A stretch of 64,000 nt of DNA from Escherichia coli (GTDB taxonomy: Bacteria; Pseudomonadota; Gammaproteobacteria; Enterobacterales; Enterobacteriaceae), in NCBI RefSeq assembly GCF_046105845.1, contig NZ_CP151004.1. One strand, 5' to 3'. Below are positions 8,198-9,099 of the stretch, in pieces (position 1 is the first letter of the stretch; the number at the start of each line of letters is the position of its first letter). The position numbers and the translations under genes are program-made. Below the pieces are notes generated by a model that saw only the letters and a list, made by a program, of their open reading frames with translations, was not told the origin of the DNA and did no database searches.

Positions 8198-8362
8198 GCA
8201 AAAAAGCAAACGTTTAGCTCCGCGCATACAAAACGGGTGGTAAAAAAAGCAAACGATTATCCGGCGATCATAGCGGCTTTTTCAACCGAAGTTTGCTGCT
8301 TTTTTCTCTTTTATTGTCTTGACGATGAAAAACCAGGCAATTGATGCGCAAACGTTATCGTC
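8198..8362. promoter_or_regulatory. ghxP upstream region with repeated AAAAAAGCAAACG motifs and PurR-box-like sites
   Basis: aaaaaagcaaacgttt (8200-8216), aaaaaaagcaaacgatt (8241-8258), inverted copy gtttgctgcttttttc (8291-8306), gcgcaaacgttatcgt (8346-8361, 14/16 to the PurR consensus as I recall it). Confidence 0.4.
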
Positions 8363-8499
8363 GATGCGCAAGATTGCAGCGTTATCGAGCCGCATACCGT
8401 TCAGGATTGCGATAAAAAATCGTCTGAGATGACAAAAATATTGCGGCTAAAAAGTGTACTTTTACACTGGCGAAGAAACGCCGGTGACATACAATTAAA

Positions 8500-8642
8500 G
8501 CGTCAACACCAACCGGAACCTCCACCACGTGCTCGAATGAGGTGTGTTGACGTCGGGGGAAACCCTCCTGTGTACCAGCGGGATAGAGAGAAAGACAAAG
8601 ACCGGAAAACAAACTAAAGCGCCCTTGTGGCGCTTTAGTTTT
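8500..8642 (+). ncRNA. sraL: Probable small RNA SraL/RyjA, convergent with soxR (ends approximate)
   Basis: Non-coding ghxP-soxR intergenic region ending in a strong terminator agcgcc-cttgt-ggcgct + T-run (8616-8645) that overlaps the soxR stop; position matches the known sraL locus. Confidence 0.5.
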
Positions 8643-9099
8643 GTTCATCTTCCAGCAAGCGTGCGCCTGTGCCTTCTTCTCCTAAGCGGTCGCCCGGGTT
8701 ACGCAATGGGCAATCACTGCGCGAAAGGCAGCCACAACCAATACATCCGTCCAGCTCGTCACGCAGCGCCACTAAGGTATGAATGCGCCGATCCAACTCT
8801 TCTCGCCATTGGGACGAAAGCTGTTTCCACTCTTTCGCACTTAATGTATGCCCTTCGGGCAACACGCCAAATGCTTCACGAATGGTCGCCAGCGGAATGC
8901 CAATACGCTGAGCAATTTTGATGATTGCGACATATCGCAACACATCACGTTTATATCGGCGCTGATTGCCGCTATTACGGACACTGGTAATCAACCCTTT
9001 GCTTTCATAGAAATGCAGCGCCGATACCGCCACACCGCTGCGTTTTGCCACTTCGCCGGGGGTTAGCAGCGCTTTAATGCGGGGTAATTTCTTTTCCAT
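8635..9099 (-). CDS. soxR: Redox-sensitive MerR-family regulator SoxR, 154 aa
   Basis: [32 protein letters not shown]... with C-terminal [13 protein letters not shown] [2Fe-2S] cysteine cluster. Confidence 0.97.

Follow-up and report, generated by a model that had tools for sequence, protein, structure and literature searches.

The intergenic region between ghxP and soxR of Escherichia coli raises the question of whether it holds a gene of its own and, if so, where this gene begins and ends and how it relates to soxR, whose 3' end it faces. The small RNA SraL, also named RyjA, has been known since 2001, and tig and rho are its published targets. A first-pass annotation, made by reading the raw sequence of the window, i.e., the whole 64,000-nucleotide stretch of DNA analysed here, had proposed that this RNA lies in the interval 8345-8645 and that it ends in an intrinsic terminator reading into soxR.

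Identity and extent of sraL (ryjA)

The local genes, as read from the list of open reading frames and from the RefSeq annotation of a 99.8% identical strain, are yjcE, ghxP, soxR, soxS and pdeC. In particular, ghxP (yjcD; 6740..8089, minus strand) lies on one side of the region, while the soxR coding sequence (8635..9099, minus strand) and soxS (9185..9508, plus strand) lie on the other, so that the location and the flanking genes are those assumed by the first-pass annotation. Upon scanning of the whole window, the Rfam covariance model of sraL (RF01408) matches 8502..8642 on the plus strand with 153.3 bits (E 1.2e-34), the gathering score being 39, and the match is not truncated, since model positions 1-142, the entire model, are covered. 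When 8050-8720 was rescanned permissively, sraL was the sole match above threshold, the other one being a sub-threshold match on the minus strand to the palindromic terminator. Moreover, the curated 'small RNA RyjA' of K-12 MG1655 (ryjA, b4459, 4277926..4278066) aligns exactly to window positions 8502..8642 in a pairwise alignment. Thus, the proposed identity with SraL/RyjA is borne out by both the full-length Rfam match and the coincidence with the K-12 gene, and the feature can be described as an sraL (ryjA) small RNA gene of 141 nt on the plus strand. The interval originally drawn around it does contain sraL, although it is too wide: of the 301 nt at 8345..8645, the RNA takes up only the final 141, and 8345..8501 is made up of the sraL promoter and upstream DNA, including regulatory DNA of ghxP, with 8345..8466 lying outside the RNA.

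Within the RNA there is a single difference from K-12, at the first base, which is A in K-12 and G here, while the 110 bp preceding the start carry four substitutions, one of them in the promoter spacer. Beyond these changes there is no substantive difference: length, boundaries, neighbours (ghxP and soxR), terminator, promoter elements, predicted structure and the seed for pairing with tig are the same, and K-12 ryjA also shares 8 bp with the end of soxR. A query covering 8090-8700 (611 bp, the ghxP-soxR intergenic region including sraL) had a match in 5420 out of 5426 complete E. coli genomes, with a best identity of 99.8%. Every feature of the SraL/RyjA family that can be checked in a sequence is present here, and we put at about 95% the probability that the feature is the sraL (ryjA) gene of E. 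coli, the promoter, the terminator and the action in trans proposed for it included.

The gene is therefore already known and ordinary, with nothing novel about it, and the discovery value is small since SraL/RyjA has long been known and its targets have been published. Still, the result indicates that the reading of raw sequence can pick out a real small-RNA gene, and it corrects the boundaries to 8502..8642 for a gene that the automated RefSeq annotation of most E. coli genomes misses. In the RefSeq PGAP record of the 99.8% identical strain (L001, NZ_CP023820.1, 2501-3111), sraL/ryjA is unannotated; the gene is listed in the curated K-12 record only, and the RefSeq PGAP annotation of E. coli genomes lacks it.

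Promoter, conserved structure and coding potential

The start of the RNA is preceded by the elements of a promoter. A -35-like hexamer, CTGGCG, is found at 8467..8472, 17 bp upstream of a -10 element, TACAAT (8490-8495), which is followed by TAA (8496-8498), and this TACAAT-TAA block (8490..8498) precedes the transcription start at 8502 by 6 nt. In an alignment of 29 distinct enterobacterial sequences from more than a dozen genera (alignment A2), GG of the -35 element (8469-8470), A8491, A8493 and T8495 of the -10 element and A8497 in the middle of TAA are invariant, while the sequence separating the two hexamers varies freely. The sequence features of a sigma-S-type promoter, namely a -10 element followed by TAA at the mapped start, are thus present. 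A sigma-S-type -35, a -10 and an 'extended -10 motif TAA' have been described at the sraL promoter and counted as features of RpoS promoters (Silva 2013; PMC3753932), and the RpoS dependence of Salmonella SraL has been demonstrated by mutant analysis, a lacZ fusion and ChIP (PMC3753932). A stationary-phase promoter of this kind would start sraL transcription at 8502, and the gene would be expected to depend on sigma-S in this strain as well. A sigma-54 reading of TGGCG...GC (8468-8481) was rejected by inspection, as its spacing is off by one, the motif is unconserved and the start site would be wrong.

A simple sigma-70 scan found no plus-strand promoter at sraL. Together with the fact that the region is unannotated in RefSeq PGAP records, this might favour the view that the interval is only a spacer with the soxR terminator and that the apparent RNA is conserved intergenic sequence devoid of a transcript of its own. 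Such a view is very improbable. The silence of the scan is expected of a sigma-S promoter with a degenerate -35, which falls outside its design, and the conserved -10 stands at the right distance from the start. The covariance-model match is full-length and extends well past the hairpin, two internal helices carry compensatory changes, and the transcripts of E. coli and Salmonella have been published, including Northern blots that contradict the absence of an RNA (PMC3753932, PMC2190706).

The structure of the RNA lends itself to a comparative analysis. An exact-pattern scan of one genome per species yielded 43 loci, labelled as Escherichia, Salmonella, Citrobacter, Enterobacter, Klebsiella, Raoultella, Leclercia, Lelliottia, Trabulsiella, Pluralibacter, Silvania, Huaxiibacter, Pseudocitrobacter and others, and the sraL homologue adjoins soxR in 42 of these 43 species loci of Enterobacteriaceae. 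Two contigs of this set, labelled as a Bacillota MAG (L022) and as Chryseobacterium sp. (L024), bear an enterobacterial ghxP-sraL-soxR locus; in the former, the identity to the E. coli proteins is 100% for GhxP and 99% for SoxR, and both records are probably contaminated or mislabelled. When the Rfam structure was projected onto the 29 sequences of alignment A2, 96.4% of the cells of its 38 pairs held standard pairs, as compared to 42-54% when partners were slid by 1-3 columns. Double-sided changes occurred in 8 pairs, against 2.3 +/- 1.1 in shuffles (none of 500 reaching 8) and 0-3 in the slid controls. Most of the covariation resides in two helices. Helix 1 (nt 2-8 with nt 43-49), which closes the 5' domain (8503..8550, plus strand), shows compensatory double changes in 4 of its 7 pairs with 96.6% of cells paired, and helix 6 (nt 65-70 with nt 77-82, UCCUGU/GCGGGA; 8566..8583, plus strand) in 3 of 6 pairs with 98.3% of cells paired. 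One further compensatory change, from U-A to G-C, is found in the terminator of Pseudocitrobacter, while helices 2, 4 and 5 never vary and are thus uninformative, and helix 3 is weak (83.6% paired). The compensatory changes support a conserved structure as described by Rfam for sraL; as a single sequence, sraL folds modestly better than its shuffles (z = -2.8).

Three blocks are invariant or nearly so: AACCGGAACCUCC (nt 10-22), GUCGGGGGAAACCCUC (nt 51-66) and AAAGACAAAGACCGG (nt 90-104). The first two are partly fixed by the search pattern, so that their invariance is not independent evidence, while AAAGACAAAGACCGG lies outside the pattern. The latter, single-stranded and found at 8591..8605 on the plus strand, is invariant or at least 90% conserved in the 29 sequences from more than 12 genera and is a candidate second seed.

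A small protein encoded by the transcript, from either a 26-aa ORF within the RNA or a 62-aa ORF at 8429..8617, would be another reading of the region. The only ORFs in the interval are mechanical ones, of 62 aa on the plus strand and 88 aa on the minus strand, in addition to the 26-aa ATG ORF inside the RNA, and related peptides (MRxxDVGGNPPV...) do recur in some genera. However, most genera lack the ATG, having CGACTGAGG instead of CGAATGAGG, the frame is shifted by indels of 1-2 nt, the ends and lengths of the peptides are variable, and the recurring likeness of the peptides follows from the nucleotide conservation of the RNA blocks. No ORF is conserved across genera: reading frame and length differ from one genus to another, and in several genera neither strand contains an ORF of at least 15 aa. 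Coding of a small protein was rejected on these grounds and is scarcely credible, in line with the initial impression that the region holds no credible ORF.

Targets and proposed mode of action

SraL is an RNA of about 140 nt that accumulates in stationary phase in E. coli and Salmonella (PMC3753932, PMC2190706), and it is degraded through polyadenylation, PNPase and the degradosome (PMC2190706). It would work in trans, by short and imperfect base pairing aided by the chaperones Hfq and/or ProQ. In particular, nt 25-34 would bind tig mRNA immediately ahead of its Shine-Dalgarno sequence, leading to less trigger factor, while a second interaction, with the rho leader, would block premature Rho-dependent termination. 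In Salmonella, the duplex of 7 + 3 bp between SraL and tig has been validated by compensatory chromosomal mutations and gel shifts (PMC3753932), and SraL, assisted by ProQ and/or Hfq, has been reported to pair with the rho leader, where it prevents Rho-dependent termination from occurring prematurely (PMC6582626, PMC12360218, PMC7237705, PMC7192607). The evidence for Hfq binding in E. coli is mixed, as Wassarman and co-workers could not confirm co-immunoprecipitation (cited in PMC2190706). A 12-bp hairpin has been cited as the consensus motif for ProQ (PMC7192607), and the 13-bp stem of the sraL terminator resembles it.

Pairing sites in the E. coli tig and rho leaders were searched by a windowed duplex scan with correction for opening energy, i.e., accessibility. 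The top-ranked site in the E. coli tig leader joins SraL nt 24-35 to tig -30..-18, the paired bases being nt 25-34 with tig -29..-19, as 7 bp, a one-base bulge and 3 bp, with predicted energies of -16.4 kcal/mol for the hybrid and -10.8 kcal/mol in total. The same geometry of 7+3 bp characterizes the Salmonella site that has been validated by mutation (PMC3753932). The seed, CACGUGCUCG, is located at 8526..8535 on the plus strand. For rho, the best site is formed by SraL nt 89-106, including AAAGACAAAGACCGG, with positions -152..-135 of the E. coli leader (total -10.3 kcal/mol), and this pairing is a prediction only. RNAduplex applied to the whole length of SraL and the tig and rho leaders was discarded and replaced by the windowed scan, as its long duplexes were no better than shuffles (tig, -65.4 against a shuffle mean of -63.4; rho, -62.1 against -65.4).

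What was computed here comprises identity, boundaries, structure with covariation, promoter conservation, the presence of an intact seed for tig and the way in which sraL and soxR overlap, while sigma-S dependence, regulation of tig and rho, chaperone dependence and decay driven by polyadenylation come from the literature, mostly on Salmonella. Regulation of the targets has been demonstrated for Salmonella SraL rather than for E. coli SraL. Regulation, chaperone dependence and decay as described in the literature would be expected to hold in this strain. SraL of Salmonella Typhimurium (Silva 2013; Silva 2019) belongs to the same RNA family, is convergent with soxR, has a sigma-S-type promoter and pairs with tig over 7+3 bp upstream of the Shine-Dalgarno sequence, as here.

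The conservation pattern suggests a qualification on tig. Klebsiella and Raoultella show variation in the seed for tig whereas other blocks are invariant, so that the main conserved target may be one other than tig. The better conservation of nt 9-22, 51-65 and 90-104 as compared to the tig seed might point to a further main conserved target or protein partner.

The 3' end facing soxR and the neighbouring DNA

Transcription of sraL would end at a hairpin located at 8611..8641, so that the product is a structured RNA of about 141 nt. The terminator pointed out by the first-pass annotation, agcgcc (8618-8623), cttgt (8624-8628) and ggcgct (8629-8634), is present and turns out to be the core of a longer stem of 13 bp (8611-8623 with 8629-8641) that contains six G-C pairs, encloses a loop of five (CTTGT) and is followed by TTTTGTT on the plus strand. 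The plus-strand hairpin has a folding energy of -20.5 kcal/mol (z = -6.9), with none of 200 shuffles being as stable, and the minus-strand hairpin reaches the same -20.5 kcal/mol (z = -5.3). On the minus strand, a 10-bp core stem is followed by UUUGUUUU, while the tail of the plus strand reads UUUUGUU. The terminator scan calls the hairpin on the plus strand only, and its total of 2 terminators against 1.7 expected is not above chance.

Since both strands fold at -20.5 kcal/mol and are followed by U-rich tracts, the hairpin probably is a shared bidirectional terminator, serving sraL on the plus strand and soxR on the minus strand, and, being palindromic and placed at the end of the convergent soxR, it would most likely terminate both transcripts. 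We infer that soxR uses the sraL hairpin as its own terminator. Bidirectional intrinsic terminators of convergent genes are built likewise, from a palindromic, G+C-rich hairpin flanked by an A tract and a T tract, so that transcription from either side yields an RNA hairpin with a U tract behind it. Here, however, a small RNA is one of the two partners, and the Escherichia hairpin additionally contains the final codon of the other partner together with its stop codon.

The coding sequence of soxR and sraL overlap by 8 bp (8635-8642), confined to the region of the terminator hairpin, and the stop codon TAA, read as tta at 8635-8637 on the plus strand, falls within the 3' arm, so that the hairpin does overlap the soxR stop as had been noted. 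An overlap of the SraL terminator with soxR had already been described (Viegas et al. 2007; PMC2190706). The further claim of antisense 3' sequence common to the two transcripts holds for the DNA, by virtue of the 8 bp; for the RNAs, the whole hairpin would be common to both if soxR terminates there.

How far this arrangement is kept was tallied in 44 enterobacterial sequences, that is, the window and the 43 species loci. In 10 sequences the soxR stop falls within the 3' arm of the hairpin; in 20 it is found in the next 8 nt, corresponding to the U tract of SraL, in 9 at 9-40 nt, and in 4 at more than 40 nt, in some cases with inserted repeats, while no soxR end was found in one (Citrobacter sedlakii). 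The stop is thus in the hairpin or the U tract in 30 of the 44 sequences, or in 30 of the 43 with an adjacent soxR. Judged from this tally, the close tail-to-tail arrangement of sraL and soxR is ancestral and widespread in Enterobacteriaceae, but dispensable, the insertions between the sraL terminator and the soxR stop also pointing to dispensability of the overlap. This ancestral and common, albeit not obligatory, overlap is the one modest point that the comparative data add. Among the sequences with a distant stop, some Enterobacter and Lelliottia carry a palindromic REP-like insert of 50-130 nt between the sraL terminator and the soxR stop (L009, L021, L008, L044), and about 515 nt are inserted there in L044. 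In S. enterica subsp. diarizonae the soxR stop is 35 nt past the hairpin, whereas in E. coli it is inside.

A stop codon within the 3' arm goes along with a SoxR whose C terminus extends two residues beyond that of most genera. SoxR of Escherichia and Citrobacter amalonaticus ends in ...LLEDEQN (L004, L013, L017, L018, L031 and L034; 8635-8646 in the window), while ...LLEED or ...LLEDD is found in most genera, and it is the two extra residues, QN, that move the stop codon into the hairpin. In two other lineages (L010 and L035) the stop has the same position with other C termini (...SLKN and ...DSKN). The SraL tail differs in parallel: in Escherichia and C. amalonaticus it consists of UUUUG followed by UU or CU, as compared to six or seven U in most genera. 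In Escherichia the QN extension of SoxR thus places the stop inside the hairpin and leaves the U tract of SraL short and interrupted (UUUUGUU), a change that could alter SraL termination or chaperone binding.

Such an overlap raises the alternative that SraL acts mainly in cis on soxR, either through a duplex of the 3' ends cleaved by RNase III or through interference between convergent transcription, which, if true, would couple stationary-phase signalling to the superoxide regulator. It is favoured by what sraL and soxR have in common, namely 8 bp of coding sequence as well as the entire hairpin, and by the position of the stop in the hairpin or U tract of 30 of the 43 sequences with an adjacent soxR. 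We nevertheless regard a main role in cis as unlikely. The common segment is locked in each RNA in a self-complementary hairpin of -20.5 kcal/mol, which disfavours intermolecular pairing; the overlap does not reach the conserved blocks, which belong to the RNA body; and the RNA is equally conserved in the 13 of 43 sequences whose stop is separated from the hairpin by 9 to 515 nt, in some cases with inserted repeats. C. sedlakii (L014) retains sraL, and no soxR homologue is found in about 1.6 kb downstream. Finally, the targets in trans have been validated via compensatory mutations. A broader version, in which the tail-to-tail overlap is functional and ties sigma-S to SoxR levels through shared use of the hairpin or RNase III cleavage of a 3'-3' duplex, in which the Escherichia UUUUGUU tail could alter termination or chaperone binding of SraL, and in which the main conserved target or protein partner lies elsewhere than tig, is equally unlikely as a whole. 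Action in trans, with the hairpin as a probable common terminator, is thus the preferred reading.

On the other side of sraL, the upstream DNA bears on ghxP. Four boxes resembling PurR operators, found by pattern matching, are clustered at 8150-8361 between ghxP and sraL: AGCGAAACGTTATCTT (8150-8165), AAGCAAACGTTTAGCT (8204-8219), AAGCAAACGATTATCC (8247-8262) and GCGCAAACGTTATCGT (8346-8361), the last one inside the interval initially assigned to the RNA. Window-wide, the pattern has 30 matches against 28.9 expected, that is, no excess over chance; three distinct sites fall within about 150 bp in the ghxP-sraL region. The cluster fits the membership of ghxP in a purine module repressed by PurR (PMC8376909). 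A sigma-70 promoter of ghxP is predicted at 8285..8256 on the minus strand (-35 TTGAAA, 18-nt spacer, -10 GATAAT; 10 of 12 matches in the scan) and would give a 5' UTR of about 160 nt. Its -10 sits within the PurR-like box 8247-8262, which suggests repression of ghxP by occlusion at the predicted promoter.

The gene content of this side also varies. In most genera a gene resembling glutathione S-transferase, of about 230 aa, is placed between ghxP and sraL and is divergent from sraL, as in Klebsiella pneumoniae (L042, 2468-3160); it is absent from this position in Escherichia, some Citrobacter and Trabulsiella. The upstream neighbour in Salmonella is such a glutathione S-transferase gene (STM4267), which E. 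coli lacks. A remnant was sought with tblastn, and there was no match better than E = 1 in 8000-8700, nor any in the whole window; E. coli is simply without this gene at the locus. Genera both with and without the glutathione S-transferase-like gene keep an A/T-rich motif like GCGAAAAAATTTCGGC, which precedes the sraL start by about 55-70 nt and is found at 8432-8447 in the window. Elsewhere in the window, Rfam matches a lysine riboswitch at 52725-52921 (plus strand, 99.5 bits), presumably the lysC leader, and the enterobacterial small RNA STnc430 at 50682-50830 (plus strand, 89.2 bits).
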